Shown here one piece after another: positions 20,156-49,494 of a DNA stretch of 64,000 nucleotides (positions within the stretch are counted from its first letter, which is position 1; the number at the start of each line of letters is the position of its first letter). Position numbers and translations under genes: made by a program. The notes beneath the pieces are model-generated. The model did not search any database, was not told the origin of the DNA, and saw nothing but the letters and a program-made list of their open reading frames with translations. Origin of the DNA: a virus (lineage: Duplodnaviria > Caudoviricetes); the IMG/VR virus record IMGVR_UViG_3300028591_000106, positions 32,001 through 96,000 of that record; one strand, 5' to 3'.

Positions 20156-21079
20156 GTATTTAAGGTATTTATCCTTAAATTGCTGTGGGGTTATATCTTG
20201 TGGGTTTTGATATAATAGCTCTTTCGGTTTGAAATTAAAATGAAAGCTATCAATAGGAAGATATCCACTATATTTTTTTCTAAAATCCACATAACTATTT
20301 TGTTCACGGTTCTAACCCCAGTGAATAATAGTTGTACCTAATTCATCATTAGGGCAAGGAAAATGAAAAGGAATCCTTTCATTTGAAAAGGTTTTAACAA
20401 AGGCAATGAAAGCTAACAGCTCTTTGTGAGAAACGGTTAAATTGTTAAAAAATATATTTTTAGTATCTAGCAATTCTCTTACAAGTTCTTCATCAAAAGA
20501 TATAGGAACAACAATCTTCGCGCCTGCATAGTTTTTATGCATAAGACTTTTTATCTGATCTTCGCCGGGATATAGTGTATAGATAAATTTAATATTATTG
20601 TCAAAATGATCAAATAACTCTTCCCAGTCATAATTATCCATGAAGTCTCGATCAGCAACATATGTAATGCCCGCGCCGGTTCTTACTCCTGAAAAATCTT
20701 TATCTCGCCAACTAATAAGGCTGTTCTGTCGAATTGACTTAAATAGCGTCTTATTTTTAATACGATCATAATTCATTTCATATGGCGTGAAGTCTGGCGG
20801 CGTAGCTAATGTTTCTGCAAGAAGATTTGATTTACCATAGAAGCCATATCCAACCATTTTTCCTTTTTCAGTATTGATTGTTAATCCTTTTGGAATAGGA
20901 TTCTTTCCTTCTTTAAAGTAGAAGATTTTATTGTATCGTCCTGTATTTTCATAAGGCTTCATCATAATAACAATATGACCTTCATCAGAAAGCTTTCTAT
21001 AAGCCTTCATCAAAGGAAGGCTTATAGAAAAATTTTGTCCATGATTAAAGTCGATATCATAAAGTCCAATTGTTGCCAT
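20147..21079 (-). CDS. Hypothetical protein resembling a phage radical-SAM-family N-terminus; CxxxCxxC absent
   Basis: MATIGLYDID..N..LPLMK; one TAG at 20312 read through to TAA 20147. Confidence 0.6.
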
Positions 21080-24000
21080 TATTCATCTACCTCCGCACGC
21101 TCTGTTGTAGACTTGGTGATAAATCCATCTGCATCCATTTCTTCGATTTTTTCAAAAAGAGGGAAGCTAGTGTTTTTATATTTCTTCGGAACGAAATCGT
21201 CTTCTCTTCTAATACCAGTTATAATCAATTTATTACCGCGTGCGAAGAAACTCTTTTCAATAACAGTTTTTGTACCGTCTGGATTCTTTCGGCTAATTTG
21301 ACGATCCCATTTAGCATACTGATTCTTCCAAACTTTTACATTAACTACCTGCATTTCCGGTGTTAAGATCGTTACTGTACTTTTGTTCTTATCTTTATCA
21401 ATAACCGTACCACAAATACGACTGATCTCATAAAGACGAATGATTCCACCATCTTTAGATTTAAATTCGCTTGCAATTTTTGGCTGTTCATCCAGATACT
21501 CAAATGGAGTAATATTATAGGCTCCAAATTTCAAATCTTTCAACTCATGTTCATGACAATAAGTTCCAAGAGAATCCATATCCCATTTATCAATTGAGCC
21601 AAGAGCATACTTCTGTCTCACTTCTTCATAAAGTGCATTATTAAGTTGAGTAAGAATCTCCATTTGATTCTTTTTCATCCAAGCCCTGACTCTATCCATT
21701 GACTTCTGATAGATTGTTTCCCATTTAGTTTGCTTAATCAAAGCATAAGATTCAAACAAGCTAATATTCACAGTTTCAAGCAAATCTGGATCAAAATGGT
21801 CTGTGAAGAACTTTACTGCGGCATCATCAAGACGGTAACAATCACCTTCAACATTGCCCTTCAAATACTTATTGAAGTTATAGACTTTTGCTTCAAATAC
21901 AAGATCATCTGGGATTAAATCTTTTTTCATCAGCATCATCATATTTTGAAGTGTGATTCTCTTTTTCTTATCTGCGATAAGATCAAGATACTTCATCATT
22001 ACTTCTACTCTATTGCCGCGATAAAGATTATCAAAAGCACCAGATTTAATTAAAGACACCATTTGAGTTTTATTAACCTTAACTTTTGCCATAAAATCTT
22101 CCATTGAAGTGTAAGGTCTATTTGCAATAATTTCATAAACAAGCGCAGTTCCAATTCTATCAATACCTTTAAGTCCATAAATAATAGCATTTGCTTCGAC
22201 ATCAGGCTTAAAGATAAGATCAGATTTATTTATGTCTGGCGGCAAAACATTAATGCCGGCTTTCTTTGACTTACCGAGAGCAACACTAATCTTACCATAG
22301 TTAACAGACTTATTCTTTTTCTTCTTTGGAGTATCTTCACTTTCGTCATCTTCTTCTTCTCTATCGACATCGTCTGCATCAAGAAGATCTGCACCACCTG
22401 CATTTGTAATCAAACAAGCACAATTCCAATAAATATCATTATACTGCGTTGCAAGTACAAGTGTTTGAATGCCTACATAAGAATAAGCTAATGCGTGAGG
22501 CTTTGCAAAAGAATACCCCATTTGAGGTCCCATTGTAGTTTCCCACACATACTCTCCGAAGTTCTTTGTTTCACACGCATTGATAAACTTTTCATGTAAC
22601 TCTGGAATCTTATCCATCTTTTTCTTAGCAACAATTTTTCTTGTTGCGTTAGCTTCAGACAAAGAAAAGTTTGCTACATGCTCGTCCATGCAAATCTCCA
22701 TCATATCTTCCTGAGATGCAGGAACACCATAGTTAGGGAGATAATATGGTTCAAGAGTTTTAATTTGAGATTCAGTCAATCCTGCCGTTCTACATTCTTG
22801 ATACCAAGCACTCATATCTTCCTTTAATCTACAATATCTATCAAGAGGTCTCTCCTTATCTTTTTCTCCCATCAATCTCATTAGAGCATTTGCAGACATC
22901 ATCTCAGTAGGATTACGAGGCTTAACCTGTTTTGCTGTTGCAAGACCAACACCAGTACTGAACTGGAATACATCAAGAACTTTACCTTCGCCAAGTGCAT
23001 CCCAAATTTCAGAATTGTTCAAATCAATAACATCAGGATTCAAATATTTATCATATGCTTCTCTTAAACTTAAATTCGGATCCATAAGACCATCTTTTTG
23101 TAACAGGTTAACTGCAATAGTGATCTTATCACAAATTTCTGTAACAAGGAAGTCATACTTAACATCGCCCAATGATTCTGCTTCATGAAGTGAATATTGC
23201 GTAGTTAAGTCTCCATTAGGACTTCTCATGATTGCTCCAGTTTCAAATGGGCTTTCATTATAAAGAATAACACCAGATGCGTGCTGTCCTCTTTTATTTA
23301 CAAGACCATCAATAGACTCAATGATGTCAAGAAGCCCCGGATATTTATTCAGCTCATTTACAAGAGCTTGGATTGGCTTTCTTTCTTTCTCTTCATTGCC
23401 ATAAACTGCATCATGAATTGACCACAAGAAACCACGCTCTTGAGGAATCAAAGAGCTAAAATATAGAGCCGTATCAGAATCAATTCCTTCAGGATATGCC
23501 TCAGAACGATAACCTCTACATGCCGCGGCAATAGCTGAACGAGTTCCTTCTGTACCATAAGTACAAACCTGAATAACATTCAGTTCTCCACGCTCCTGAC
23601 GAATCGCTTTAAAGATTGAACTTCTCTTTGAAGGAGTAAGGTCAATATCAATATCAGGCAACTCTACACGCTCTTCATTAAGAAAACGCCAATATTTAAG
23701 TCCCCACTTCAGAGGATCAAGTTGAGTAATTCCAAGAAGATAATTACTTAAGAAACAAACTGCAGAACCACGCCCAGGTCCAACGATTGAACCATTATCC
23801 CAGAACAAGTCAATATAATGCTTAAAAGTATTAAAATATTCATAAAGGCAGTTGCCGAGCTTTTCACCAACAACTTTAATAACTCTAGCTTCTGTTTCAA
23901 GTCTCTTTAAATATTCAGAGTTAATCAAGTTCTTATCTTTTAATGAAATAAAGCATTCATTTACCCAATATCTTTCCTGCTCATTATCACTCATAAACAA

Positions 24001-25014
24001 TTGGATAAGAGTCGGATAATCCCCTTTAAATGTCATTGGGATTTTAGGATATTGATGAACTGTGACTTTAGGAATGATTGGCTGCCTAAATAAATCGTAA
24101 GTCTCAATTTTGTCATAAATTTCCATTGAGTTACGGCACATTTCAAAAAACTCTTCCAAATCAAAAGTTCCTTGAAGATTGCCAAATGCTTCTTCATTAT
24201 CCATCATATGAGAATAAGCATAAAACTCGTCAACTTCTCGCTCTGCTTCTTTTGAGTTAAGATATGCTTTATGAACCTGACGCTCTTTTGCAGTTAAATA
24301 GTGGGCATCAGAACCAATAACAAGTTTTCTTCCATATGCTCTCGCAATAGACTTAACACGCTCATTAAACTTTATCTGGTCCTTTGATGCCGCGGCGGCA
24401 ATTTCAATATAAAAGTCATCACCAAACAAATCTATGTTCCAACGAATAAACTCGTCAATTTTCATTTTCCAATCATAGATCTCTGCTTCACTATTATTAT
24501 GCTCAGCTTTGATCAACTCAAAAACAAAATGAGGAAGTTCTCCACCAATACAGGCTGTTGTTGCAATTAAAGTATTCGGATACTTTCTTACAATTTCTTC
24601 AAGCTCATTCTTTTGAGTCGGCACTCTCATAATACCACGAGAGTTAAAACCATTATACCATGCGATAGAACTAAGTTCTCTTAAGGCTCTATGTCCTTCA
24701 GTATTCTTCGCAATAAGAATGTAGTGCCAATATCTTTCAATATTGGTCCTATCATCAACCAAATAAATCTCATTGCCGCAAGCACATTTAAATTCTTTCG
24801 GAATCAAACCTTTTTCCTTTAATTCCTTTTCACACATCAGCCATTCGACATGACCGGCAACAGTCTCGTGGTCTGTCAATGCAATACCAGCCATTCCAAG
24901 TTTGTGTGCTGTTAAAATCATATCTTTTGGACGATTGATAGAATCAATCAATCTAAAATTTGAAAACATGCTATGGCTATGGTCATCAAATCTAGGTACA
25001 CTATTAAGATCCAT
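21079..25014 (-). CDS. dnaE: DNA polymerase III alpha subunit
   Basis: PHP domain (HSHS, ALTDH), GPGRGSA, LPDIDID, GQHASGV; 1311 aa with no TAG. Confidence 0.96.
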   Translation of the reverse strand: MDLNSVPRFDDHSHSMFSNFRLIDSINRPKDMILTAHKLGMAGIALTDHETVAGHVEWLMCEKELKEKGLIPKEFKCACGNEIYLVDDRTNIERYWHYILIAKNTEGHRALRELSSIAWYNGFNSRGIMRVPTQKNELEEIVRKYPNTLIATTACIGGELPHFVFELIKAEHNNSEAEIYDWKMKIDEFIRWNIDLFGDDFYIEIAAAASKDQIKFNERVKSIARAYGRKLVIGSDAHYLTAKERQVHKAYLNSKEAEREVDEFYAYSHMMDNEEAFGNLQGTFDLEEFFEMCRNSMEIYDKIETYDLFRQPIIPKVTVHQYPKIPMTFKGDYPTLIQLFMSDNEQERYWVNECFISLKDKNLINSEYLKRLETEARVIKVVGEKLGNCLYEYFNTFKHYIDLFWDNGSIVGPGRGSAVCFLSNYLLGITQLDPLKWGLKYWRFLNEERVELPDIDIDLTPSKRSSIFKAIRQERGELNVIQVCTYGTEGTRSAIAAACRGYRSEAYPEGIDSDTALYFSSLIPQERGFLWSIHDAVYGNEEKERKPIQALVNELNKYPGLLDIIESIDGLVNKRGQHASGVILYNESPFETGAIMRSPNGDLTTQYSLHEAESLGDVKYDFLVTEICDKITIAVNLLQKDGLMDPNLSLREAYDKYLNPDVIDLNNSEIWDALGEGKVLDVFQFSTGVGLATAKQVKPRNPTEMMSANALMRLMGEKDKERPLDRYCRLKEDMSAWYQECRTAGLTESQIKTLEPYYLPNYGVPASQEDMMEICMDEHVANFSLSEANATRKIVAKKKMDKIPELHEKFINACETKNFGEYVWETTMGPQMGYSFAKPHALAYSYVGIQTLVLATQYNDIYWNCACLITNAGGADLLDADDVDREEEDDESEDTPKKKKNKSVNYGKISVALGKSKKAGINVLPPDINKSDLIFKPDVEANAIIYGLKGIDRIGTALVYEIIANRPYTSMEDFMAKVKVNKTQMVSLIKSGAFDNLYRGNRVEVMMKYLDLIADKKKRITLQNMMMLMKKDLIPDDLVFEAKVYNFNKYLKGNVEGDCYRLDDAAVKFFTDHFDPDLLETVNISLFESYALIKQTKWETIYQKSMDRVRAWMKKNQMEILTQLNNALYEEVRQKYALGSIDKWDMDSLGTYCHEHELKDLKFGAYNITPFEYLDEQPKIASEFKSKDGGIIRLYEISRICGTVIDKDKNKSTVTILTPEMQVVNVKVWKNQYAKWDRQISRKNPDGTKTVIEKSFFARGNKLIITGIRREDDFVPKKYKNTSFPLFEKIEEMDADGFITKSTTERAEVDE

Positions 25015-25090: not shown

Positions 25091-25119
25091 ATTATACCAT
25101 ATTTTATAAAAAAAGTCAA
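25091..25119 (-). promoter_or_regulatory. sigmaA-type promoter for dnaE
   Basis: TTGACT-17-TATAAT with TGG extension; the -35 lies inside an upstream hairpin (about 25112-25143). Confidence 0.8.
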
Positions 25120-25909: not shown

Positions 25910-27715
25910 TTAAAAGTCATAAATAGAAACAGGCTTAATCTCATACTGATCAACAATAATCTGTGGGGTAGTATTCCCTCTAAAGTGGTTTAAACTTGCC
26001 TTACCTGCAATATTTAATTTAATAGTATCCCCATCTGTATTATTAAATTCTTCAATAGCATCGGCGGCTTTAAAGAATAAATATGTCATTCGATTAAACT
26101 CAATCTTCATGGTATCACCTTTAGATCCCATAACTTTTACAGATGATTTTGGAATAGTTAAATCTTCTACAATAATGACTGGCTCTTTATTTCCTTGTCC
26201 CCAGTATTTACTCTTTTCTCCAATTGAGTAAACTAAATCATAGAGATCAGAATAGTTTGCCGGCACAACGAAATCTGCTTCATAGAAGTTTTCATTGAAG
26301 TTAATATCTTTTAATGCTTCGTTAGCATAATTTACCAGTCTATCAATATCATTCTTTTTGATACTAAAACCTGCAGCATTAGCATGACCTTCTACAAAAT
26401 CTGTGTAACCACTGTAATTTAAGAAACCTTTGAAATCTTTTAACTCGCTTTCTTCACGACCGCGAATTGATCCTTTCAAATATCCGCCAGGAGTTGTTCG
26501 ACCAAGCATTGTAGGCTTCTTATACTTTGCCGCGATACCCATAGCAATTAATCCTGTTAAGGTTGTTGGGACATCCAAGTCATCAGCATTTAGAATAAGA
26601 ATTTTATTTTCATCGAGACAGTTATTCATAATTTGAATATCAAGTAACTCAATAGCCTTATCCTTTTCTCGATTCTAGCGAGAACGAGCATTAGTACAAT
26701 TTCTTGCACTCTGCTCTGCGATAGTCTCCATAGTACCTGCGGCACCGCGTTTTGTTGATGCGATCTCATTTTTGCCATGAATAAAACTCTCAAACATGAT
26801 TTCCTTTTCATGCTGAGATCCTACTCGGATAAGTGCATTGATAAGAGGAGTTACATAAAATGCTACTTTAAGCTAAGTTACATCTCCGTTAGTGTAATAG
26901 CTGTCAGTCCATGCATCTTCATAGATACCAAACATTGAGTAACATTGCTTTTTAACAACAGTCCTAAAAAATTCATTGTTGATATGAGAAAGACCATAAT
27001 CACAAATAAATCTGTTTTCAGGAGTTTGCATCCACATCATATCACTAATTTCTCCGAGTGCTACTAAATCTAAGTATTTATCGCTTTCCTCGGCTCCGAT
27101 CTTTTCATCGAGTGCTTGTAAAAATTTATAAACAATACCTACACCACTAGCCATTTTATTCGGATAATCTTGTGAAAGCTGATTATTTACAACTACAGCA
27201 TCTTCACTATATTTCTCTGCATCATGGTGATCAAGTACAAGAATATCATAACCGATTTCCTTTAGAAGTTTATGATATTCATAATCATTACTGGAACTAT
27301 CTGGTAGGACAATTAAGTCACAAATCTATCCGTCTTTTGTTAACTCCTCCATAACAGTTTCAAGACCATGTTCTTTACCTTCCGGAATATGATAACTAAT
27401 TTTTACTTCCGGATAATCATGACAAACTACTTCCTGCATATAGTTAATAAATACGGCGGCAGAAGTAAATCCATCAACATCACAGTCCACATAGACTCTA
27501 ATATGACTCTTATTATCAATATGCTTTATAAGCAATTCTATTGCTTCATTCATATGATCGAGTGAATAAGGATCACATAGATTGTCTTTTGTAGGCTTAA
27601 AATACCAAGAGGCCCCCTATTCGATATCTTCCGGAGTTAGGATTCCTCTATCTATGAGCAAATTCTTGGCATAATCGCTTCTAATGTCATAAGTTGTTTT
27701 TCTTATATATTTCAT
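25910..27715 (-). CDS. recJ: RecJ-like ssDNA exonuclease (DHH family)
   Basis: YVDCDVDG, VLDHH, DLVALGEISD, GHANAAG; four TAGs join the track fragments. Confidence 0.92.
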
Positions 27716-28776
27716 TAAAACCAGACTCCTTTTGAAATTAATTCTCTTGCTACCTCCGGTCCACAGTCAAAAGGAGACTGTTTCAACTTCAGCAGATGAC
27801 TATAGTCGTAAGTATATCCCATGATACAATAATTACGGTATTTTTGACACAATGATTCAAGTTTTTTAACATAAGCCTCTTGTTCAGCCCATGTTTCGCC
27901 TTCTTTATCATACGCAATTAAAATACGCTCTGCACCACAAGATATTAGTAAATCAAGCTAATATTTATGGAATGTACTTCCACAAGTTGCGACGACGATA
28001 TTATTTTCTTGTCCGAACATCGTTCCATATTGCATAGGACTTTTCTCGCCTTCTGCAACGATCGCCATCTTAAATTTCCTAATATTGTCTTTTACAAGAT
28101 TTAATCCATATAAGTTATATTGGAGAGGATGATTGTAGGTCTTTCCTTCAATCACTACTGGCATATATTTTCCAAAAACTAAATCTTCTTCATTTAATGC
28201 CCTTCCTCTAATTCCAATAAGCCTATCGTTAATATCATAATGAGGAATGATAATTTTATTTTCAGAAATTGAATAAAGGATATTATATTTACGCATAATC
28301 TCTTCTGAAATGCCGTCATTTAGCCATTCAGGAGTAGGATTAAAAGTATAAACATTTAACACACCTTTATTTATTTCAGGCAATTCAATATTAGTTTCCT
28401 AATGAGATAAATTGTATATTGACTCATATCTTTGAGTAAAATCTGTCAGTCCAAAAGTTCGATGTTTCTTTCCGCCGCCAATCTTTAATACAATGTCTTT
28501 ATAGAAATCATATGTAATGCCCAATAATTCATATCGTTTCTTGAACATTTCAATGACATTAAATGTAGAACAACAATCAGTATAACAATGGAAAGTTTTT
28601 GTTTTTGGATAATAGTATAATTTCATACTTGCTTCGGCGGCATCGGCATTATGACAAATAGTAGGAAAGATAATGGCATTATGTGTCTATTCATATCTAT
28701 CTGCTCCAAGTGATGTCATAATCTCAATGATCTGTTCATCTGACAAACTTTTTGCAAGTTCAGTCAACTCACTCAT
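27715..28776 (-). CDS. DNA primase
   Basis: Zn-binding TICH...FHCYTDC, IIIPHYD..RLIGIRGR, TOPRIM AEGEKS and IAYD; three TAGs. Confidence 0.88.
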
Positions 28777-28787
28777 TTAATCACTCC

Positions 28788-30494
28788 TTACAGAAAATCT
28801 GAAAACTTTTTGCCATGGACTCTCGCTCTTCTATCATCCATGTCATCAAATGCTTCTGACATATTTGTCATTAGTTCTTCTGGATCATCTGCCATTTCGC
28901 TCATATCAATCATTCCTGTATCGACTCCGTTATCTCCTTCATTCAAACTGTTGATAAAATCAATATCTTTATCAAATTCAAGATCTACAACTTGAGTAAT
29001 AACCTTGAAGTTTTCAATCGGTTTCATTTCAGGAGTTGTTACGAACAAGTCTTCTGTTCTCAAACAACCGGAATCATAATAAGACCATATCCTAACACGA
29101 TTCCATCTTCCGCCACGATTCTTAAACACATCTGTTACAAGAGTTGGGGCAAAAGAGAAATTCTTGATATAGCCTGCAAGTAAAGTCAATTCTTCTTGGG
29201 TTGGGCGGCTCATAATAGAACTGCAGTCAGACAAGTCATTGATTGCCTTAGATCCTCTAATGCATCTCTCATCTTTAAATCCACCCTTTGCAGCTTCTTC
29301 ATTTGTCAAACTTAACTGTGTAGCTGACATAATAAAAACATTCAGCTCTTTAGCAAGATTCTTGAGAGTTGTCGTAAACAATCTTAAAGCAACATCTTCT
29401 CTAATTCCAATATCACGATACTCATTCAGCATTGCCGGACAAGAGAAAATATAGTCATAGAAGAAATGCGTTACATCAAACTCAATAGCATACTGACGAA
29501 TAAGAGTTTTCATTATCTCGCCGCAAGGTTCAGGAACTTCAATCATTTCGAAATTCTCACGATATTGTTCCATGATTTCCATTGCCTTTTCGATACGAGG
29601 CATCTCTTCTTCGCCAAATAAACCATATTTAAACATATCTTCATTATAACCAGTAAGATATGCTAAAATCATTGGCTGGATTTCATCAATACTTTGCTCA
29701 GTCATAATATAAGCGACATGATAACAAGGTCCAGTTGAAACCCATTTATTACTTTTTGTATCAAACCTACAGGGATAAGCGAGATAACAGGCATCGCCAA
29801 CCATTCGACGAGTTTTACCAACACCAGACGCTGCACAACGAAGATAAAATTTACCAAGTCTTAAACCTCGACAAATCGTATGATATCTTTCACCTTGTGG
29901 AGTTGCTCCGATATCTGGCTTCTCTTTATAAGAAGCAACCAAGTCTCTGATACCTTCTGCCGCATTACCCTTCTTAATTGAACCATTAAGAATATATTTC
30001 TATTCTAATCGACCTACTTCAATTCTAAGATGATTAACTAAGTCTTGAAGAGTCATATGCTCAAAGCGTTCATTGATTTCATTATAACGACTATCAATGA
30101 TATTCTCACAATATAAATCGTTTGTATCTCTGCCGCTTTTCTGTAAGTCTTTGATAAAGTTTAGCTTTTTCAGCTTATTATAATAGTAATTGAAATTTTC
30201 AGGTTCGCCGGTCGCTTCACAGTCTTGCAAGAATCCTTCTGCATTCTCTTTTTCCAATAAAGCATTAGCTACCTCATTTGATTTGAGGTAGTTTAAAATA
30301 TCAATCGAACGAATGACCCTTGCTCCATCACCACTATTATACAGATTATTTATCGCTGAAAAGATAAATCTATCTAATGTGTTTGGGAAGTCATTAACTT
30401 CAAACAAATATCTATCAACTTCACTGAGAAAAGAAGGATGATGCATTAGACCACCAAGAACCTAAATAATAGTATGGCGGTCAATTTTTATCAT
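28788..30494 (-). CDS. Replicative DnaB-like helicase
   Basis: AASGVGKT Walker A, FYDYI, SATQL, KNRGG; TAGs at codons 11 and 165. Confidence 0.9.
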
Positions 30495-31204
30495 TCGTCA
30501 TCACCTGTAATAGAGTTTAAATCAATTTGCTTACGCTTCTTCCTTCCGATATAATCACTCGGATTATATTTAATTTCTACTCTATCTTTCTCTAACTGTC
30601 TTTCAATAGCCTCTTCAATTTCTTTTTGTCTTTTATCCTGACTCTTATAATAAGCAGAAGCCTAATCATAAATATAAGGAATAATTCCGATTGTTTTATA
30701 TTTTTCTGTGACCTTATTACCTTTTACTTCATACCACCATTTCAATGTAAGAAGTTGAGATCTATAACTCATTCCTTCTTTTTGATGCTTTTGCATTTGA
30801 GCTACATTCCAGTCGCTTACTGGCTTATCTCCATCAGGTCCAAATAAACGATAAATATAAAACCACAAAGCGTCACGATCATCATTTATTTTTTCTTTCA
30901 ACTAAAGATTTTCTTCTGAAAGATGATTCTTAACGGTTGATGCAGAAATTCCAAGTTCTCTAGCTACTCGTGCCATATTTCGCCAAGCCGCAAAAAGTTC
31001 GTTAATCTTTTTGATCATTTCATCGTCAATTTTAACTCTTGCTTTTCTTACGACTTCAACCGGCGCGCCTTGATAAATATTTAAATACTTAGTAACAGAT
31101 GTCGTACTAATGCCAAGTTCTTCTGCTACCTTCTTTTTGCTATTGTATTTTTCATACAATACTGGAATTTGTGCGATAATTTCATCACTGATTTTTTTCG
31201 CCAT
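30491..31204 (-). CDS. Double-HTH protein upstream of the helicase (possible replication/loader factor)
   Basis: Two HTH motifs (KKVAEELGISTTSV, ARVARELGISASTV); two TAGs; ATGA overlap with the helicase. Confidence 0.7.
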
Positions 31205-31313: not shown

Positions 31314-32561
31314 TCATAGCTTATCCAAGTAGTCTGCAGCCGCCGCAACCATACTACGCTCAATTGTGACAAGTTGAATTGTAGAAAAAATACGAGACAA
31401 CTCTGGAGATTTGTGCAACTCAAGAAGTAATTGAAGTCCGTTACGATCCTTAAAAATTGCACTATCAGCCTGATGGATATCACCATCAAAGAAGATTCTA
31501 GTTCCTTCTCCACAACGACCGACAAGTAGCTTAATATGTTCTTCAGTTAGGTTTTCAGCTTCACTTACAATTACGATAGAATCAGTAAAGTTTCTACCTC
31601 TAATGTAAGCCATAGGAACAATTTCAAGCTTTTCCTCTTTAATCCATTCAAGTACAGTAATAATACCAACAATGTCGATAAGCGGTCCAATGAGAGGCTG
31701 AATTTTTTCAATCATATCTCCAGGCAATGCGCCAAGATCCATAGTATTTTGTGTATAAGAGTTATTTGGTACATATACAATCTTTTTAATCTTTTCTTTT
31801 TCAAGCTGGTTGATTGCATAGTGGTGAGTGCAATATGTCTTACCAGTTCCAAATGTTCCTCCGACATAAAGAATCTTATTGTCTTCATTTAAAATGGCAT
31901 CAATTAAGCAAATCTATTCTGGATTACGCGGTTTGATTATACCAGAATTATCATCCGTCCAATTAGATTCAAGTGTTTTGAACTTAACTGGTTCAAATTT
32001 ATCGCCATTAAATTTAAAAATACTAACCTTGCCAAGTGATGCATCATAGTCTGGCGGCGGAATAATTAAATATTCATTATAACTAAAAGCATGATCTTCA
32101 CACTCGAAAGTGCCTGTTTCACAAAGTTCTGCAAGAATAGAGTTATAAACTTCTCTGCTCATATCAGAAATATTAAGATAATAAGCTCCAACATAATCGC
32201 TAATAAAAGAATATCCTTCAGTATTAACGCCAAGAACTTTTGCTCGAACTTTTAATGAAATATCATTAGTTACAAGTACACCATTGCGTTCTTTAGTTAG
32301 CTATATAAGTTGGTCATCGGCGCTTACTCCCTTTGGATCGTCAAGAGTAAATTCAATATTACTAATATTCATATTTTTAGCAATAGTGACTGCCGCCTTA
32401 CGAGCCTTCTATCCAATTTCTGAATTTTGATTTTTCTTCAGATCATCAATTTCTCTTAATACACACATTGGAATAATCCAATATTCCTCTTCTCTAGTTA
32501 CTACTTGAGGGTAATCAAGAAGAACATTTGTATCAAGGATTTTAACTTTCTTATCTTCCAA
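31314..32561 (-). CDS. phoH: PIN-PhoH protein (PhoH2/YlaK-like)
   Basis: PIN motifs ILDTNVLL and LVTNDISL; NPE(TAG=Q); GGTFGTGKT; LGALPGD; YIRGRNF; SEAEN; GDIHQAD. TTG start is inferred. Confidence 0.88.
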
Positions 32562-37905: not shown

Positions 37906-37934
37906 ATTATATCATATTTACTTTTAAAAGTCAA
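37906..37934 (-). promoter_or_regulatory. sigmaA-type promoter for gyrA
   Basis: TTGACT-17-TATAAT with TG extension. Confidence 0.8.
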
Positions 37935-37937: not shown

Positions 37938-39830
37938 TTAAACATTATTATACTTACTAAAATCAATACGAGACATAACGAACTCTTTTCTTGGCTTAAT
38001 ATCAACACCCATAAGCTCGCAAAGTCTTTGAGCAGCTTCTTCTGAGTATATAATCTGCTCCATCTTTTGTCCGCCAGTTTTAGAGAACATTGTTGCCTTC
38101 AAGTCTGCTTCTTCAAGCTGACCAAGTCCTTTAATACGGTCCAAGTCGCCTTTGATCTTGCCCTTAGCTTTTGCGGCGGCAAGCTCTTCATCAGTATAAT
38201 ACCAGCTCAATGGCTGCATATTTTTATCATACGCAATATGAAGAGGACAGCGTAGCCAGTATACACGATTTTCTTGTAAAAATTGAGGACAAATTCTATA
38301 AAGGTTGGCGAGAATAAGAAGTGCAATATGATAGCCGTCATCATCAGCATCAACGCAGATAGCAATTTTTCCATAACGGAGTTTCTTTTTATCATAGTGA
38401 CCAACATCAATTCCTAGAGCATAGATTAAAAGCTCAATTTCTTTATTGCTAAAATACTTTTCATCGTCATCTTCTTTTAATCCATTTAACATCTTACCAC
38501 GAAGATACATTACTCCATAGTTCTTTGTATCTCGACCTGCGATAATTGCATTGCCTGCAGAGTCTCCCTCGCACACACAAAGAATAGAATCTTCACCCAA
38601 GTTCTCTGCATCAGCAAGTTTATCAAGAAAAGCTACCTTCTGCTTACGAAGTTCATTCATCTTCTTATTACGATTCAATGCGGCTTCTCTTGCTTTATTT
38701 GCAGCTTTTTCAGCATTTGCAAATTTCTTCATCATTTCAATGATAGGTCCAAAGTCAGGAGTATCAGAGAATTGAGTCAGTCCATCATCAAATGCCTGTG
38801 ATGCAAGAGTACGAAGATTAGGGTTGTTAATCTTGCTCTTAGTCTGGTTTGCAAATGAAGGATTGACAACGCGGCAGTTAATCGCATATACTAATCCTTT
38901 ACGAATAAGGTCTGGATCAAAGTTCTCTCCACTTAAAGATTTAATCTTTGTGGTGATCTTTGTTTTAGCTCCAGTGATAGGAGAGCCGCCTTCCGGACAA
39001 TAAAGACCATTAACAAAAACATAGTCTTGAGTAGGATCTGCAGTCCACATGAAAGCAATTTCTACTTCATCAACTCCATCTGTTGCAGAAGCAAGAATCG
39101 GAGCAAGCATAAGCGGCTTTTCAACATGGTCTCGAATGAAGTCTGCGATACCATTTTCAGAGTAATATTCCTCTTTCTTACCTCCCTTTGTAGCAACAAT
39201 AAAATGAATACCTCTGTTAAGGTAAGAAATATTCTTTATCTCACTACAAATTCTTTCATAAGAAAAGCCTTCTGTATCATTAACAAAAACTTCTTTATCA
39301 GGTTTAAAAACGATAAGAGTTCCAGTTTTCTTTTTATCGTCTACAACAATACCGCTATCTTTAAGATTAACTTCTCGATAATCTTTCAGGATACCTTTAT
39401 CGAAGCAGGCTTCTGCAACTTTTCCATCTCTAATACTACGAACATTAAAATATTCTGAACTCATACATACAGCTGTACCGCCAATACCGTTAAGTCCAGA
39501 ACTATTTTTATATGCGTTTTTATCAAACTTACCACCGGTATGACTCTCAGTATAAATTGCAACAAGGATGTTCTTCCCGTCTTTAATACCAAAAGGAACG
39601 CCGCGTCCATAGTCTCTTACTTCGATACGGTCAGTTTCCTCATCAAGAGTAATTTCAATTCTATCGCCATAACCAGCTAAAGCCTCATCAGTAGAGTTGT
39701 TTATAATCTCTTTAAGTGCCTGATAAATACCTTCAGTGTCATCTGAACCAAGATACATTTGAATACGAGTTCTCATAGCTTCTCTTGTTTCAAGATGCTG
39801 AATACTATCAATACTATAATCTTGAGCCAT
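37938..39830 (-). CDS. gyrB: Type IIA topoisomerase subunit B
   Basis: EIINNSTDE, DYGRGVP, GLNGIG, EGDSA, LRGKMLN, DADDDG, KGLG; no TAG. Confidence 0.93.
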   Translation of the reverse strand: MAQDYSIDSIQHLETREAMRTRIQMYLGSDDTEGIYQALKEIINNSTDEALAGYGDRIEITLDEETDRIEVRDYGRGVPFGIKDGKNILVAIYTESHTGGKFDKNAYKNSSGLNGIGGTAVCMSSEYFNVRSIRDGKVAEACFDKGILKDYREVNLKDSGIVVDDKKKTGTLIVFKPDKEVFVNDTEGFSYERICSEIKNISYLNRGIHFIVATKGGKKEEYYSENGIADFIRDHVEKPLMLAPILASATDGVDEVEIAFMWTADPTQDYVFVNGLYCPEGGSPITGAKTKITTKIKSLSGENFDPDLIRKGLVYAINCRVVNPSFANQTKSKINNPNLRTLASQAFDDGLTQFSDTPDFGPIIEMMKKFANAEKAANKAREAALNRNKKMNELRKQKVAFLDKLADAENLGEDSILCVCEGDSAGNAIIAGRDTKNYGVMYLRGKMLNGLKEDDDEKYFSNKEIELLIYALGIDVGHYDKKKLRYGKIAICVDADDDGYHIALLILANLYRICPQFLQENRVYWLRCPLHIAYDKNMQPLSWYYTDEELAAAKAKGKIKGDLDRIKGLGQLEEADLKATMFSKTGGQKMEQIIYSEEAAQRLCELMGVDIKPRKEFVMSRIDFSKYNNV

Positions 39831-39858: not shown

Positions 39859-39887
39859 ATTATATCATAAAAAACGAAAAAAGTCAA
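39859..39887 (-). promoter_or_regulatory. sigmaA-type promoter for gyrB
   Basis: TTGACT-17-TATAAT; the -35 is one arm of the hairpin AAAGTCAAGA/TCTTGACTTT. Confidence 0.8.
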
Positions 39888-40058: not shown

Positions 40059-41006
40059 TTACTTCTGCTCCTTCAAATACTTGATTGCACTTTGTACTGC
40101 ATTAGCTCCATCAGATGCAGCAGTTAGAGCTTGTCGTGTCATTTTTGTGCGACAATCTCCGGCGGCAAAGAAGCCTGGATTAAGCATACTAATACCAGTA
40201 TCCAATGCGGTTATATAACCGTCTTTATTAACTACATCAGAAATATTAATATGAGCAGTATTTGGAATCATACCAATCGCGACAAAAACTCCGTCAACAC
40301 TAATACATAGCAATCTTGCTTTACCATCATCTGGTACTTTACGGAACAATACTATTTTATGCTGCTCTTCGCCATCAGTAATAGAAAAGCGATTTGTTGC
40401 AATTTCATTAACGATAAAATCATAGGTAATGTGAATATTTTTAATTTTAGAAACTCTTTCAAAAGTTGCTGGTGCTGCAGTTACATTGCGGTCGCACATA
40501 ATAATATGAACTTGCTTACAAATCTTTGATAGATATTCTGCTTGAGTAAAAGCCACATCACCGCCGCCAATAACAGCAACAGTTTTATCTTTATATAGTG
40601 CTCCGTCACAAAGTGCGCAATAATGAATCGGGATTCCTTCTTCGATTTCACAATTCAATTCTCTATGTCTTGCGCCAAGGGCATAAATGATTGCTTTCGC
40701 ATAGTCTTCTGTACCATCAGTATATTCAACTGCGAATCCGCCTTCTACAAGTTCACTAACTACTCCTATCTCATGTTCTTCAACTTTAATTCCATTTGCT
40801 TCAAGTTGATCATGAAGTTTCATAGCTAAATCGAAGCCAGACATTGGTTCTACACAAGGAAAATTTTCTACAAGAATAGCATTACTAATCTATCCGAAGT
40901 CATATTCATCGCGTCCAACAAGTTTAAAATCAAGATTTGCGCGCTTAGCATAGAGGGCGGCAGTCATACCTGCCATACCATTACCGAGAATTATTAAGTC
41001 TTTCAT
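40059..41006 (-). CDS. trxB: Thioredoxin reductase
   Basis: ILGNGMAGMTAALY, FG(TAG=Q)I, VENFP, HYCALCDG, IGGGDVA, GFFAAGDC. Confidence 0.92.
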
Positions 41007-41172
41007 CGTCTACCTCCTCGAATAAAGATAAGCCATCTTCAATGTTAATTGATTCTCCATTATAACCTATAATTGTGCCGTCACAATCTGAATCTTTGTC
41101 AATTAATCCCATTTCATTAAGAATCTTATCAAGTGATGATAAAGCTTCTTCAGAAAAATCAATATGCTTCAC
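40981..41172 (-). CDS. Hypothetical acidic protein
   Basis: ORF overlaps both neighbours. Confidence 0.5.
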   Translation of the reverse strand: MKHIDFSEEALSSLDKILNEMGLIDKDSDCDGTIIGYNGESINIEDGLSLFEEVDDERLNNSR

Positions 41173-41600
41173 TGATTATCCCCCAAATCAATTTCATAGT
41201 CTGGTAAAACACGAATTCCCTTTAAATCTTTTTCAAGAGTGCTTTTTTGAAAAGGAAAACAACCGCAATGAGGTTCTATATTTGCTGATACCATAAATAT
41301 TTCAGTAACTACATCATAAGAAAAATTACTGTCAAAAATTACTGCATTAGCCCTGCGGCCGCGAAAAGAAATCACTTCATCATTCATTAAATAAATGTCA
41401 ATCTATTGATGGATACCTCTATATTTAATGGCTTTCTCAAATTTAATTTTATTAAAATTTAATTCATTTGCGTCAATTTCTTTTTCAAATATAGCCATAG
41501 ATTCTTTATCCTTGCAGAAAATATTAACAGTAAAAGGCTTAGGATACCATTTAAATCTATCCATTAAGTCTTCAAATATCATATCATTTAAATATCTCAT
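41169..41600 (-). CDS. Hypothetical protein (143 aa)
   Basis: Track ORFs 41403-41600 and 41169-41387 are in frame across a TAG. Confidence 0.6.
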
Positions 41601-41863
41601 TATCTATTCTCCCAATAATTAGATTCTCTCTGTTGCATCCTGATCTCTTTATCAACGATTTGACTTAATCTATTACGCTGTTGGATATCATAAGCCTTAT
41701 GTCCGCAACATGGACACTTAACATACCAGCTATCTCCTTCTCTTTGATCGCCACAATATGTATATTCGGTCTTATCTGCCTTACCAATCCAGCCGCAATT
41801 AAGGCATTCAAAATATTTATATTCTTTAGTAACTTCAAGATTACCCTCAACTATTGTTTTCAT
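41600..41863 (-). CDS. Zn-ribbon protein
   Basis: FECLNCG...VKCPCCG. Confidence 0.65.
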   Translation of the reverse strand: MKTIVEGNLEVTKEYKYFECLNCGWIGKADKTEYTYCGDQREGDSWYVKCPCCGHKAYDIQQRNRLSQIVDKEIRMQQRESNYWENR

Positions 41864-42107
41864 TATTGTCCTCCATTTTTTTTCGATGTAAATAATCTAA
41901 TGTCATTCCCTTGGCAGTATCGCAATTATAATAATCTCGACAGGATTGACAAAATAGATTATATCCCTCATTCTGACACTTATAGCAATCGCCACATCCG
42001 GGCGCACCGCCATTAACTTCTGCAATTAAGCAAGTCTTACAAATACAGTGGTGACAAAATTTCTTAACATTGTCCTCATGCTCTTTTTGAATTTCAATTG
42101 CTCCCAT
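41847..42107 (-). CDS. Cysteine-rich small protein
   Basis: CHHCICKTC...CGDCYKC...CQSC....C. Confidence 0.65.
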   Translation of the reverse strand: MGAIEIQKEHEDNVKKFCHHCICKTCLIAEVNGGAPGCGDCYKCQNEGYNLFCQSCRDYYNCDTAKGMTLDYLHRKKMEDNNENNS

Positions 42108-42597
42108 TAATCCAATCCTCCAATCTCATTGCTTTTTGATTACAAGATGCTAAATTAACTCCAAGTAGTTCATCATAAACAGGTGAGCTATCTGGAATAA
42201 AACGCCCAAACTTAACTATAATATTATCTCTGCCATCAAAAAGCCATAATTTATAAAGTTTTCCTTTAATTTCTTCAGGATAATACCCAGTATAAATTAC
42301 AATATCATCCTTGCTTTTCTGTCTGAATTTCTATATAAAATCAAACAAATATAAAAAGTCGTCAAAAGGTTCAAGTCCTCCTATAACAACTGCCTCTGTA
42401 ATTGAATTATTTAAATATCTTTCAATTACTTCATCATACTCAACTTCGATAGTAGGTGCGGCGGCAAGAGAAGAGTTCTAACATACAGGTCTTCCACATT
42501 CTTTATCGCACTTAAAACTACAAGAAGGAAAGTTAATAAACATCGAAGGCTTCTTGTAATTTACGAAATCTTCATCAATTATTCCTTTTATTAGCAT
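42094..42597 (-). CDS. nrdG: Anaerobic RNR activating enzyme (radical SAM)
   Basis: DEDFVNY, CSFKC......C(TAG=Q)N, GGLEP, IYTGY, VKFGRF, LASCNQ; missed by the ORF track. Confidence 0.88.
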
Positions 42598-43000
42598 TAA
42601 CTTCCTCCTAAATTTTCTCCATAGCAGCTCTTATATTTTCAGTTGAAACTGCATGAATTAATGGTATTTCACTATATTTATCAATAACTTTCTCTTCTTT
42701 AGAATCTCCTCCAAATTCATTAAACCAATCTTTCCACGCTTTTGTAATAGCTTCTTTACTATATATTCTTCCCATACGGTCAGGACCAGAACAATCCATT
42801 ATGCTCATTCTAACAAGTGTCTTTTTCATTTCATCTTCTGAAACTTGGGGAGGATTAAATTCCGCAAAGGTATTTAACCATTCAGGTGGATGTTCTGGCA
42901 CAATAGTGGTATTTCTCATGGCTTCTAATATATTTTCATCCTTAAAAAGTTCTTCAAAAAACTTTTTCAATTCTTCATAATCATTCGTACCCATATTCAT
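42575..43000 (-). CDS. Hypothetical protein
   Basis: Track ORF ends at TAG 42608; readthrough reaches TGA 42575. Confidence 0.55.
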
Positions 43001-43382
43001 GATCAACCTTCCTTACTATAGCTTCCATCCCGCATCTTTTAGCAATATCAATCATTCCTTTTGTACCGCGAGATTGTCCATCCCAAAAAGCAAAAAGTAT
43101 TGCCTTATCAGAATCCTTAATAGCATAATCAGCCATTTCCTTATTCCTAATCATTCCTGCTGCCTTACCATAGGTATCCCATTGAGCATGGAAGACAGTC
43201 AATTTTAACCCATAAGATTTAGCTAACTATTCGCCTAAACTATCTGCACCTCTTGCTCCGCCAGAAATGATCTCAACATTTTCTTTAAGAATACCGCGGC
43301 TCATAAAACATGAAACCACGGTATCCTCAACTATGTCATAATCGTAAAAATTGCGCGAACCGGCAATAATTACTTTAATCAT
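42981..43382 (-). CDS. SLOG-family (DUF2493/YspA-like) protein
   Basis: VIIAGSRNF, IISGGARGADSLGE, AAGMIRNKEMA, AFWDGQSRGT; one TAG. Confidence 0.85.
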
Positions 43383-45324
43383 TAACATTCTCCCATCTTC
43401 TCATGGTATATTCCTTCCTTCTAGCCTTTGTCCAAGTCTTAATTGGAGTGTAGAAACCTACAACTCTAGTATACTCGGTTGCAACTGGCTTACCACAAAC
43501 AGGGCAGGTCATACCATAGAAAGCATGATTATCTTCGCAAGCCTGAATTTTTGTATTAAATGCGAAATATGTAACACCCTGATCAGCGATATACTCAACC
43601 ATCTTACGAGCAGTTTCATAATTGTTGAAAGGCGCATCAATATTCGCATGAAGAATAGAACCGCCATTGCAGAATCCATCAAACATAGCCTGAACTCTGA
43701 CACGCTCTTGAAGAGTAGTTTTAATACCAAGCGGCATAAACTGATTACCATAAAGAGGAAGATCATAAATATCTGCTGTTGGATAGAAGAACTGGTCTTT
43801 CTTCATAAGTTTAGCGGCAGCGTTCTCGCCAGGGATCTGTTCGGTATTGATCTTATAATCAAACTTACCTTCTTCAAGGAAAGCATCTGCAACAGATCTC
43901 ATTGTTTCAAAAATCTTCTTACCAAAATCTGCAGCCTCTTGAGTATAGAAAGTATTACCCAGCTTATCCTGATAAGTACAGCCAAATTTCTTCATTGTCT
44001 CATAAATGCCAATGAAGCCAATGGTATTATACAAATGCTCAAAATCAATAAGTCCATAGCTAAAATTAGGAAGAAGTCCTTTTTCAACATTACGCTCAAT
44101 AATGTGACGAACAACATGAAGAGAACGAACAACACAAAGAGTTCTATTCTTAAGTTCTTCCAGATACTCTTCTTTACTATTTGTATCAAGAGCAAGTCTT
44201 GCAAGGTTAATTGTATTAACTTTAACAGAACCAACCTTCAAAGCAGTACCACCAATAGAGTTGAAATATCCAAGATCACGAATATCGCTCTTAAGGCGGC
44301 AACAATTAGACAAGCTAGAAACATTGTCATCAATGAATAGATTGGAGTCGCTCCATCTCATATTATGTTCAATAGCCCAACCTGCAAAATCTTCATCAAG
44401 GAACTTGCCATCTTTTCTGACAAGTGAAATTGTAGAAACAGGGAAGGTGAACATATTTTCTGAACGAATATCTGCCATAACTTCCATATATTTCTTCTGG
44501 AAGTCAATGATTCCCTCGATATCATCAATCATAAAAGAACCATCAGGGAACTCAGAGCCGCCAAATAGTGCTTCGAGATATTCTCTATCAAAAACAGAGG
44601 TATTAGTAAATGCAGACTGCTGCCCATCTCTTACGCATGGCTGATTGACAGCATAGATAAATCTCTGGATATTCTGGCGACCATAGACATCTTCATTACC
44701 GCTTGACTTAATTCCAAGATAGTTTTCATCGACATCCTTTTTCCAGAAATAATACATATAAGGAATAAGGTTAGGTAGACCGACTGCACCTGAAGTTCTG
44801 TTACTTGCAAAGTTAATAAACTCCTTTACAAAATCAACAAAAGTTGTCAAGTGCTTAGGCGGCTTAGCATTGAAAGAATCTTCAAGGAAATAAAGTCCTT
44901 TATTCGCCAAATCTGTTAAATCATATGCAAAACAATAAGATTTGAAAGTAGATGTATCTGCGTCGTGCATATAAATTTCGCCCATCCATTCACGACGGAG
45001 CCATTCATTTGCAGCTTTGAAGCCATATGCCTTCTACATTTCAAAATAAATCTTCTAAAAAGCCATAACTTTTCTGTGAGGTTTTGGCATTTCAGAAAGA
45101 AGGGTTACAATATCCTTGCGTCTTACATTACTATTTGAATCAATAGAACTATCTGCAACAACAGCTTCACCGATAAAATTATCCATAAATTCGCCATATG
45201 AAAGCTGTTCATCACCAGCACCATTTAATGTAGCAAGTTCTGTACCAAATTCATCTTGTAACTTGTTCCACTAAGTAGTGAAGTTTTTATTCCTTTTACC
45301 AATATTACTAACATTATACTGCAT
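43375..45324 (-). CDS. nrdD: Class III anaerobic ribonucleotide reductase
   Basis: IYMHD, YC, SNCCRL, EQIPGE, GGSI, CPVCG, RVVGF (glycyl radical site); TAGs at codons 18, 90 and 97 only. Confidence 0.93.
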
Positions 45325-45329
45325 TTAAT

Positions 45330-45533
45330 TCACCTCTGATTAATCCATTCTACGGCGGCACGAAAATCCATAATCTTTCCATTAACTTCGAGCATTGGCG
45401 CTTCATGCCAACCTTGTGATTTCATAAAACTTACATCATCACAAACACTGTAGTTAATGCCGGCTTTCGCAAGTTTCTTTTCCAGAACCTAGCATCGAGG
45501 ACAGTGCGTAGAATAAAGAGTAATTGATTCCAT
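45330..45533 (-). CDS. Glutaredoxin/NrdH-like redoxin
   Basis: LYSTHCPRC(TAG=Q)VLEKKL...APMLEVNG; missed by the ORF track. Confidence 0.85.
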
Positions 45534-45679: not shown

Positions 45680-46189
45680 TTAAATTGTAGCGGTAAAAGA
45701 ACCATGAATAGATACTTCTTGCTTTCCCTGAACAGCATATCTATCTGCGAGATTATTGCCGACAGTAGTAGCGTGTCCTTTTACTTTTTGAATTTTGACC
45801 ATTGGCATTTCTTTTAATAGCGCGTAAATAGCCTTGATTGCAGTAAGATTTTCAATAGGCTCATGTTTTCTACCGCGAGTCCAGCCATTAGCTTCCCACT
45901 TTTTAACCCAGTCATTAAAAATGTTTACACAATAAGCTGAATCGGAAAAAACAGTTGCATTAGAAAAAGGAGTAAAATCTTCTCTTTTCTTTAACCAAAG
46001 AAGAGCCTGATAAATTCCATATAGCTCCATTGCATTATTAGTAGTTTCAGGTTCGCCGCCATAGAATCCACAAATACGACATCCACAATCATCGTAAACA
46101 ATAGTGGACCATCCGCCGGCAACACGAACATATTCTCCATTGACCTTTTTCATTGTGGCGGCGCCATCAGTATAGATATTAAAGTTCAT
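45680..46189 (-). CDS. rnhA: Ribonuclease HI
   Basis: IYTDGA, TTNNAMEL, SDSAY, VKGH, GNNLAD. Confidence 0.93.
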   Translation of the reverse strand: MNFNIYTDGAATMKKVNGEYVRVAGGWSTIVYDDCGCRICGFYGGEPETTNNAMELYGIYQALLWLKKREDFTPFSNATVFSDSAYCVNIFNDWVKKWEANGWTRGRKHEPIENLTAIKAIYALLKEMPMVKIQKVKGHATTVGNNLADRYAVQGKQEVSIHGSFTATI

Positions 46190-48322: not shown

Positions 48323-48357
48323 TTAATGTATTTTATTGTATAGGTTTATCTAAGGTT

Positions 48358-49494
48358 TTAATTAGCAATTTGATCGTATAGACAATCCTCGGCTCTCTTG
48401 TCATCTCTCCAAGTCTTGATAATACCGTGGCGAAGACTGAAGCCACCATCAATATGCTCGGTCATCATTCCACTAAGCTCAGCGACCTTACCCTTCCACT
48501 TCTCAGGCTCAGTAACGATACCTTCTCGAAGAGCTTCTGTAATTCCCTGCATCCATGCGATTTTAACCGGAACGCCATCTTTTAAAACGGAGAAAGATAC
48601 AGAACCTGCCCATCCATAGAAGTAATATTTTGTAACAGGTTCAACAGGAACTCCATTGATATAGTCCTTAAACTGACTTGTGGAGTACTTCTGACCAGTC
48701 TTTGTATTCTCCCAGTAAGGCCATGTCGCAAGCAGCTCAGGAGTCTTAGCTGAATGAACTCTTGTTGCGGGCGCATAATCGCCATCAAGAAAAGCGTCGA
48801 TCGTTTCTTCGAGCTCTCTCTTCATTTTAAGAGTCATCCAAGCTGTGCGCTTGCCGGGAAGATATTTGCAATCCTTACGAGTGATAACGATTCCTTCTCC
48901 GCCGGCGGCAATAACAGAGCCGAAAAGATCCCAAAGTTCAGGACCTTCAAGATACTCTGCGATTGAAGTATGTTCATTCTTAAGAACATCAAGCAGCTCA
49001 TAGTTAAGATACTTTTCAATTCTTTCCTCGAACTTAATATCAATCAGAGACTTTCCCTTATATGCAAGAACATCAAAAACATAAAAATGAAGCCATCCGT
49101 TAGTCTTCTGTCGTTCGATGCACTTGTCTTTCAGACAGCCAAGAACAGAAGTAACTTTACGGCTGCCCTCATTGTTCGGGAAGTAGATTTCTCCTACCAA
49201 AACAGTGCCATTTGGTACACAAGAAAGCTCTTCACAAATATGAGGAATCCATTCTGCCTTATCAGCAAATTCACCACTAACACCTGCATCACGACTTCTA
49301 AGATGAATTTGTCCATCCATGTCTTTAATAATCATGCTCCAGAAGCCATCCATTTTGCGGCTTCCAAGATAGTTATGAGATGTAGCAAGTTCTTTTGCTT
49401 TTGCGGTTCGATTACCTTTAAAACTTGAAGTAAAGCTATAATATTTCATAGCTTTCATATTCCAAAAATCATAGTTATCAATCAAAATCTCCAT
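48358..49494 (-). CDS. ATP-dependent DNA ligase
   Basis: RKMDG (motif I), LVGEIY, VFDVL, EGIVI, LKMK, WRDDK; no TAG. Confidence 0.9.
   Translation of the reverse strand: MEILIDNYDFWNMKAMKYYSFTSSFKGNRTAKAKELATSHNYLGSRKMDGFWSMIIKDMDGQIHLRSRDAGVSGEFADKAEWIPHICEELSCVPNGTVLVGEIYFPNNEGSRKVTSVLGCLKDKCIERQKTNGWLHFYVFDVLAYKGKSLIDIKFEERIEKYLNYELLDVLKNEHTSIAEYLEGPELWDLFGSVIAAGGEGIVITRKDCKYLPGKRTAWMTLKMKRELEETIDAFLDGDYAPATRVHSAKTPELLATWPYWENTKTGQKYSTSQFKDYINGVPVEPVTKYYFYGWAGSVSFSVLKDGVPVKIAWMQGITEALREGIVTEPEKWKGKVAELSGMMTEHIDGGFSLRHGIIKTWRDDKRAEDCLYDQIAN

Follow-up and report, generated by a model that had tools for sequence, protein, structure and literature searches.

The published model of recoded phages is a two-state switch between early and late genes, and its main basis is the distribution of in-frame stops among genes. 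In the code 15 gut phages of Borges et al. (bioRxiv 10.1101/2021.08.26.457843), a phage suppressor tRNA decodes TAG as glutamine (Gln). TAG is enriched in their structural and lysis genes, the early genes are in the standard code, and recoding of the replication genes was called 'variable' between clades. The role proposed for this arrangement is a delay of late and lytic proteins. The crAss-like phages show block-wise dual coding (Yutin et al., PMC7886860; Mgcod, bioRxiv 10.1101/2022.06.29.495998), and Kienbeck et al. (PMC10879173) proposed a concentration-based switch with theta ribozymes, in which accumulating suppressor tRNA, tRNA(Sup), overwhelms termination. Here we describe a 64,000-nucleotide stretch of phage DNA (the window; bases 32001-96000 of the 146,596-bp single virus record IMGVR_UViG_3300028591_000106) in which TAG has been purged from the genes for DnaE, GyrA, GyrB and DNA ligase, whereas the neighbouring replication genes carry it. 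Positions refer to the window unless they are marked as genome, L001, L003 or L004 positions.

The record, whose completeness is estimated at about 89%, represents a probably virulent Firmicutes-type siphophage of 146.6 kb from the rumen or gut. The motif TTGACT-N14-TG-N-TATAAT, which matches the sigma-A consensus, occurs at 40 sites genome-wide compared to 0-1 in shuffles, pointing to a Firmicutes-type host. Along its entire length, DnaE shares 36-38% identity with YorL of SPbeta and with the polymerases of Enterococcus phages of about 140 kb. The record resembles these phages in its large siphophage genome and its very long tape measure gene; they use the standard code, however, whereas here TAG encodes Gln, and the record (about 89% complete) yielded neither a tyrosine or other integrase nor a serine recombinase. 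A 63-kb contig from a public run matches window positions 20100-39170 at about 97% identity and thus represents a very close relative in another sample.

Like the phages of Borges et al., this phage reads TAG as Gln by means of its own suppressor tRNA, concentrates TAG in structural and lysis genes and keeps its early genes and switch machinery largely readable in the host code: genome-wide, 28 of the 36 cistrons that directly follow a consensus promoter lack TAG, such a promoter also precedes the tRNA array, and TAG accounts for 16.5% of the Gln codons in the early region. In contrast to the description by Borges et al., the split runs gene by gene inside one replication module and is kept across recoded relatives. 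Synonymous-site evidence and a skew of middle-tier TAG toward the 5' end come with it, and the rule that structural genes are recoded does not hold for capsid and scaffold. As in the crAss-like phages, TAG-free and TAG-using parts occur in one genome and correlate with early and late function. The crAss-like genomes, however, belong to Bacteroidota phages and are organized in contiguous code blocks, whereas this Firmicutes-type siphophage has TAG-free genes interspersed with TAG-bearing ones in a single strand block and the boundaries follow promoters. The switch would act by accumulation of tRNA(Sup), as proposed by Kienbeck et al., but here the tRNA array lies directly behind a host-type consensus promoter. 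In Rfam searches of three loci, including the tRNA array, the matches were confined to tRNAs and a single abiF motif; no ribozyme reached the threshold, the presence of the theta subgroup in Rfam being unchecked. The graded number and position of TAG in each gene concern the read-out side of such a switch, which is unaddressed by Kienbeck et al. The gene-by-gene split, the synonymous-site demonstration, the 5' bias and the TAG-free capsid gene are refinements of the published idea of codon-timed protein synthesis in recoded phages, and we did not find them in the literature searched.

Exclusion of TAG from four replication genes

Long open reading frames (ORFs) emerge on both strands once TAG is read as sense. 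We compiled 109 alignment columns that contain TAG in this phage or in a relative. Gln is the most frequent partner in these columns, and 20 of the 28 well-conserved ones are Gln columns; therefore, TAG is taken to encode Gln. A tRNA with the anticodon CUA was detected with ARAGORN and Rfam at genome 144941-145014, within the 11-tRNA set of the genome. Its acceptor and anticodon arms are similar to those of the adjacent tRNA-Gln(CUG), and the array holding it lies directly downstream of a consensus promoter at genome 144423. Decoding of TAG as Gln through the phage's own tRNA(CUA) is well supported by these sequence data.

Family names were confirmed using Pfam (DnaE, RecJ, DnaB, PhoH/PIN, AAA_24 ATPase, GyrA, GyrB, TrxR, NrdG, NrdD, RNase H, and the ATP-dependent ligase) and PHROGs (primase, RuvC-like resolvase, dUTPase, ClpP-like protease, tape measure, Dit-like protein, and endolysin), and for the ligase also NCBIfam. 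A preliminary description of the window had reported about 3100 codons without an in-frame TAG in dnaE, gyrA, gyrB and the ligase gene, and the exact count bears this out: the four genes contain 0 TAG and 73 CAA/CAG across 3,121 codons. The tape measure gene, credited by hand count with about 55-60 TAG, has 62 in 2,167 codons, and the other tail genes are TAG-rich too. The 2-4 TAG assigned to helicase, primase, RecJ, single-stranded DNA-binding protein (SSB) and ribonucleotide reductase hold for DnaB (2), primase (3), RecJ (4), NrdD (3), and NrdG (2). They do not hold for the presumed SSB, a 130-aa gene (35019-35411) with 1 TAG, which has no family match in Pfam, PHROGs or NCBIfam, so that its name is unconfirmed. 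TAG is thus purged from the DnaE, GyrA, GyrB and ligase genes. In the remaining genes for replication and nucleotide metabolism it makes up about a quarter of the Gln codons and lies mostly toward the 5' end, and in most tail, packaging and lysis genes it is the commonest Gln codon and evenly spread.

In the remaining 34 genes of the minus-strand block, TAG constitutes 23% of the Gln codons and is distributed homogeneously (permutation p 0.18), compared to 45% in the plus-strand late genes (p = 3e-9). Compared with the rest of this block, the four genes stand apart with a Fisher value of 7e-8, for a gene set that was picked post hoc. Considered individually, the probability of finding 0 TAG is 1e-4 for DnaE, 0.015 for each of GyrA and GyrB, and 0.2 for ligase, which alone is not significant; small TAG-free genes are indistinguishable from chance. 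Most late genes have TAG at 46-47% of their Gln codons vs. 0-25% elsewhere, with the capsid gene, the scaffold gene and two virion protein genes as exceptions. Of the three tiers of TAG usage proposed in the preliminary description, the levels of 0, 23, and 45% stand, but the tiers are not discrete, considering the TAG content of the early region and the small TAG-free genes within chance.

To compare related phages, we used two IMG/VR scans with DnaE and GyrB as queries, which yielded 52 loci comprising about a dozen recoded contigs and many in the standard code. In nine dereplicated recoded relatives, the four genes together show 3 TAG and 315 CAA/CAG, whereas the other replication-block genes show 135 and 914 (p = 6e-13), i.e., 3 of 318 vs. 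135 of 1049 Gln codons are TAG. Exclusion of TAG from DnaE, GyrA, GyrB, and ligase is hence shared by the recoded relatives. The same contrast appears at synonymous sites. Among 35 conserved-Gln columns in the four genes, none has TAG in any recoded lineage; 27 of them are polymorphic for CAA/CAG, and CAG, the one-step precursor of TAG, is present in all 35. In eight neighbouring genes (RecJ, primase, DnaB, NrdD and others), TAG occurs in 16 of 53 such columns, with a CAA/CAG turnover equal to that of the four genes. TAG columns are mostly lineage-specific (15 in RecJ, 7 in DnaB, 6 in primase, 7 in the helix-turn-helix (HTH) protein, and 6 in NrdD), and TAG gains in the middle tier are therefore ongoing. 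To the published model, this clade thus adds codon-level evidence of active TAG exclusion from particular replication enzymes over long divergence.

An explanation that involves no selection on the codon would attribute the pattern to chance, to slow evolution of conserved genes or to recent replacement from standard-code donors. In its favour, chance suffices for the ligase gene alone and for every small TAG-free gene, the relatives show some mosaicism, and in a published time series faster evolution was found for the recoded genes (bioRxiv 10.1101/2023.08.07.552389). The latter account, however, does not explain the four-gene contrast. TAG fraction is uncorrelated with protein conservation (rho 0.02); the most conserved gene, NrdD (87%), has 3 TAG, and the conservation of ligase is not above that of primase. 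Recent acquisition from code-11 donors, which the preliminary description had named as a possible explanation, likewise fails to account for the TAG-free genes. The four genes are syntenic in the relatives, in trees they group with recoded relatives (66-84% identity) and not with standard-code phages, and their usage of CAG, AAG, GAG, and G or C at third codon positions (GC3) is the same as in their neighbours. Weighed together with the pooled relatives and the synonymous-site columns, an explanation without codon selection is largely refuted and we consider it very improbable. As recoded relatives show the split within the replisome too, and as it is not a recent acquisition, the sequence comparisons indicate that it is real, as the preliminary description had suspected, and that it is maintained by selection on the codon itself.

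Promoters and position of TAG in a proposed gradual gate

The genes for DnaE, GyrA, GyrB, and ligase are each the first cistron of their own consensus promoter, and this layout recurs in recoded and in standard-code relatives. We found a consensus promoter before every gene for which the preliminary description had listed one. The genes at 7421, 31204, 35411, and 45533, which it had treated as exceptions, are promoter-proximal but TAG-bearing, with 16, 2, 1, and 1 TAG, respectively. It had inferred a first wave translatable in the host code, but one promoter class is common to the TAG-free genes, the HTH-DnaB-primase-RecJ operon, the NrdH-NrdD operon, and the suppressor-tRNA array. This shared class suggests that there is no separate transcriptional first wave and only a possible translational lag. 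TAG-bearing genes with late functions are also found behind host-type promoters, namely those for the GH25 lysin (4 TAG) and the Dit-like tail protein (16 TAG), which is what a translational gate would require.

Two perfect consensus promoters are located inside the region encoding the GyrA C-terminal domain, at 35606-35634 and 35870-35898 on the minus strand (codons ~750 and ~662). Two and sometimes three such sites are found within gyrA in 16 relatives, the most distant of which share about 43% protein identity, and they may be internal promoters for downstream genes. In addition, a palindrome at 39879-39907 with an 11-bp stem and TTGACT on both strands overlaps the -35 element of the gyrB promoter and could be a terminator or an operator.

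The position of TAG within genes also differs between the replication block and the late genes. At homology-supported sites in the replication block, TAG has a mean relative position of 0.37 vs. 0.57 for CAA/CAG (p 3e-5); counted by gene thirds from 5' to 3', there are 25, 19, and 8 TAG vs. 39, 48, and 67 CAA/CAG. In the late genes, by contrast, the position of TAG is uniform, with a mean of 0.51. The 5' bias is weaker in the relatives (TAG 0.446 vs. 0.525, p 0.004). An apparent cluster of first TAG codons at codons 26-40 (nine genes vs. 3.7 expected) relied on a codon range chosen post hoc, so that only the broad 5' bias was kept. This bias fits genes that are translated while TAG partly terminates, a situation in which short abortive products are favoured. 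The 5'-biased middle tier and the uniform late genes are thus a positional signature that the clade adds to the published model.

Given that a single promoter class serves the suppressor tRNA, the TAG-free genes and the helicase-primase operon alike, we favour a gradual, tRNA-dosage-driven translational gate in which the TAG load of genes is graded and under selection, and we rate the chances of this reading as about even. The suppressor-tRNA operon would be fired by the host-type promoter class that it shares with early and replication genes, and the tRNA would be made from the start of infection. The read-through efficiency s would then climb gradually, and the yield of a protein with n TAG codons would scale roughly with s to the power n. 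Zero-TAG genes would be expressed at full rate from the start. Genes with 1-4 TAG would lag or be attenuated during the transition, their 5' TAG codons keeping abortive products short and harmless, and genes with 16-79 TAG would appear only near complete suppression. The TAG counts and their conservation are direct observations, as are selection at the codon level, promoter layout and positional bias; the kinetics of s and any delay we infer.

More tentatively, the number and position of TAG might act as a conserved timer of translation with several levels, extending through the replisome: products of zero-TAG genes (polymerase, gyrase, ligase) would be made before the switch, those of genes with 1-4 TAG close to the 5' end (helicase, primase, RecJ, ribonucleotide reductase) as the tRNA accumulates, and those of evenly TAG-dense genes (tail, packaging, lysis) only at full suppression. 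We regard such a timer as possible, though doubtful. If it exists, codon choice, rather than promoter class, would determine the order of replisome assembly and of morphogenesis.

The 5' bias of the middle tier would also fit selection against long truncated products. In the corresponding explanation, truncation toxicity, fragments of gyrase, polymerase, and ligase would poison DNA metabolism, whereas fragments of the other enzymes, especially short N-terminal ones, would be harmless. Consistent with this, the four genes encode DNA-bound, multi-domain or multi-subunit enzymes. However, truncated DnaB or primase should be no less dominant-negative, yet both genes carry TAG. Truncation toxicity, which appears improbable to us, still requires a phase of TAG termination and is therefore a variant of the gradual switch, not an alternative to it.

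TAG-free capsid genes and possible selection on dosage

Genome 13097-14356, in locus L001 and outside the window, encodes an HK97-fold major capsid protein, as identified from an AlphaFold2 (AF2) model with a Foldseek probability of 1.0 to many capsids. The capsid gene and the gene for a putative scaffold (L001:12328-13077) have 0 TAG, and together with the gene for a 1080-aa virion protein they show an extreme CAG/AAG preference, standard-code relatives included. The adjoining genes for the portal, the putative terminase and a sigma-like protein are TAG-rich. About 20 relatives likewise lack TAG in the capsid and scaffold genes, so the equation of TAG-free with early implied by the preliminary description does not hold, and in annotation TAG-free status is unusable for calling a gene early. 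TAG avoidance is of two kinds, one with strong codon bias (capsid class, CAG fraction, fCAG, of 0.92-0.93) and one without (DnaE, GyrAB and ligase, fCAG 0.46-0.67).

Such genes are accommodated by selection on dosage or efficiency with no temporal role. UAG read-through would in this case be slightly inefficient throughout infection; TAG would be removed where full yield matters most (capsid, scaffold, polymerase, gyrase, and ligase) and tolerated, or used to turn down expression, in other genes. In support of this explanation, the genes for the capsid, the scaffold and the 1080-aa virion protein lack TAG across relatives, the four replication genes are each preceded by a strong promoter of their own, as they are in standard-code relatives, and TAG fraction drops genome-wide as CAG/AAG/GAG preference and GC content increase. 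Nevertheless, the four replication genes are without the strong CAG/AAG bias of the capsid class. Moreover, a constant inefficiency leaves the 5' bias in replication genes vs. the uniform distribution in late genes unexplained, and genes with 50-79 TAG need near-perfect reading at some stage. On balance, we consider a dosage effect without a temporal role unlikely, though a serious competitor.

Several points also weigh against the gradual translational gate. TAG avoidance tracks something besides earliness, probably abundance, since in about 20 relatives little or no TAG occurs in the genes for the HK97-fold capsid, the putative scaffold and the 1080-aa virion protein, and the early region does carry TAG. 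Polymerase, gyrase and ligase produced before helicase and primase have no obvious use alone. Release factor RF2 and aminoacyl-tRNA synthetase genes are optional in the model of Borges et al.; in the record, which is about 89% complete, we found no release factor, glutaminyl-tRNA synthetase or other switch component (PF00472 and PF00749 unmatched), and release factor 1 would need to be outcompeted at 79 sites of a single gene. The RNA evidence consists of contigs of one sheep-gut metatranscriptome that are identical to the phage and cover TAG-free as well as TAG-bearing genes, and contigs cannot rank genes or give timing. Finally, the four-gene set was chosen post hoc in this genome, although it is upheld in relatives. 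For distinguishing timing from dosage, the clade offers natural controls, since a common promoter class serves genes with and without TAG, and since TAG is absent from the highly expressed capsid gene.

The sigma-like gene (L001:4885-6129), which has a sigma-factor label from PHROG 5767, carries 9 TAG (4-14 in most recoded relatives) and has a host-type promoter at genome 3899. If its product were truly a late sigma factor, late transcription itself would depend on the code switch. Sequence searches against Pfam, NCBIfam, and PDB returned nothing, the AF2 model (predicted local distance difference test score, pLDDT, 74) had no significant Foldseek match, and VIA-align gave only a sigma-region-4-like similarity with a Z of about 6, which is within background. 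As the sigma identity is unconfirmed, the proposed mechanism does not build on a TAG-gated sigma factor.

Features of the window and neighbouring genes

Table 1. Genes, operons and promoters in the window, with in-frame TAG counts.
Feature	Position	Strand	Remarks
Tape measure, C-terminal 2,167 codons	1..6504	+	62 TAG; whole gene 2,641 aa, 79 TAG; PHROG tape-measure families
Promoter and tail genes	7373..17188	+	promoter 7373-7401, then Dit-like tail protein 7421-10774 (16 TAG) and 2133-aa tail protein (50 TAG)
RuvC-like resolvase, dUTPase, ClpP-like prohead protease	17614..19958	-	8 TAG (53%), 1 and 6 TAG; TAG-rich late-function genes, distal end of minus-strand block
DnaE-type DNA polymerase III alpha (YorL-like)	21079..25014	-	1311 aa; 0 TAG, 35 CAA/CAG; Pfam PHP, DNA_pol3_alpha, finger, HHH_6; 0-1 TAG in recoded relatives
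Promoter upstream of dnaE	25091..25119	-	TTGACT-17-TATAAT with TG; in 3/5 recoded relatives
Operon HTH protein, DnaB, primase, RecJ	25910..31204	-	2, 2, 3 and 4 TAG; middle tier; promoter 31240-31268
PhoH/PIN, AAA_24 ATPase and three further genes	31314..35411	-	3 and 3 TAG; 33627-34538 (2 TAG), 34634-34921 (0), 35019-35411 (1); promoters 34994-35022 and 35444-35472
GyrA	35476..37884	-	802 aa; 0 TAG; Pfam
Promoter upstream of gyrA	37906..37934	-	consensus; in 4/4 recoded relatives
GyrB	37938..39830	-	630 aa; 0 TAG; Pfam
Promoter upstream of gyrB	39859..39887	-	consensus; in 4/4 recoded relatives
Nucleotide-metabolism operon	40059..45533	-	NrdH-like (1 TAG), NrdD (3), NrdG (2), TrxR (1-3), small ORFs; promoter 45568-45596
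RNase H	45680..46189	-	169 aa; 0 TAG; Gln codons too few for significance; Pfam
ATP-dependent DNA ligase	48358..49494	-	378 aa; 0 TAG, as in all relatives; Pfam and NCBIfam
Promoter upstream of ligase gene	49523..49551	-	near-consensus
Second TAG-rich block	56143..63297	+	1287-aa protein 56143-60006 (36 TAG), 265-aa protein (6), GH113 protein (3), endolysin (6)

The coordinates of the genes and promoters discussed above are collected in Table 1. At least four lysin-like genes, all TAG-bearing with 4-6 TAG each, were found at 6560-7294 and 62206-63297 of the window, at L001:3984-4844, and at L003:9202-10128. They comprise one gene with C-terminal endolysin-family matches, one full endolysin, a GH25 muramidase with PG_binding_1, and a fourth, endolysin-like gene. 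The GH113 glycosidase of the second TAG-rich block is encoded at 60833-61972.

Within the nucleotide-metabolism operon, an ORF of 143 codons (42575-43006) has a single TAG, at codon 133; the TGA follows ten codons later, and the start of nrdG lies just downstream of this TAG. This TAG could be a genuine stop that is read through after the switch.

Two further TAG-free genes are located in locus L004. L004:8647-9825 encodes a divergent adenylosuccinate-synthetase homologue that scores far below the cut-offs of the PurA and PurZ models. About 250 bp downstream, L004:10076-10996 encodes an AAA_33 kinase and HD-domain protein and has its own consensus promoter. The pair may function in nucleotide modification or salvage.

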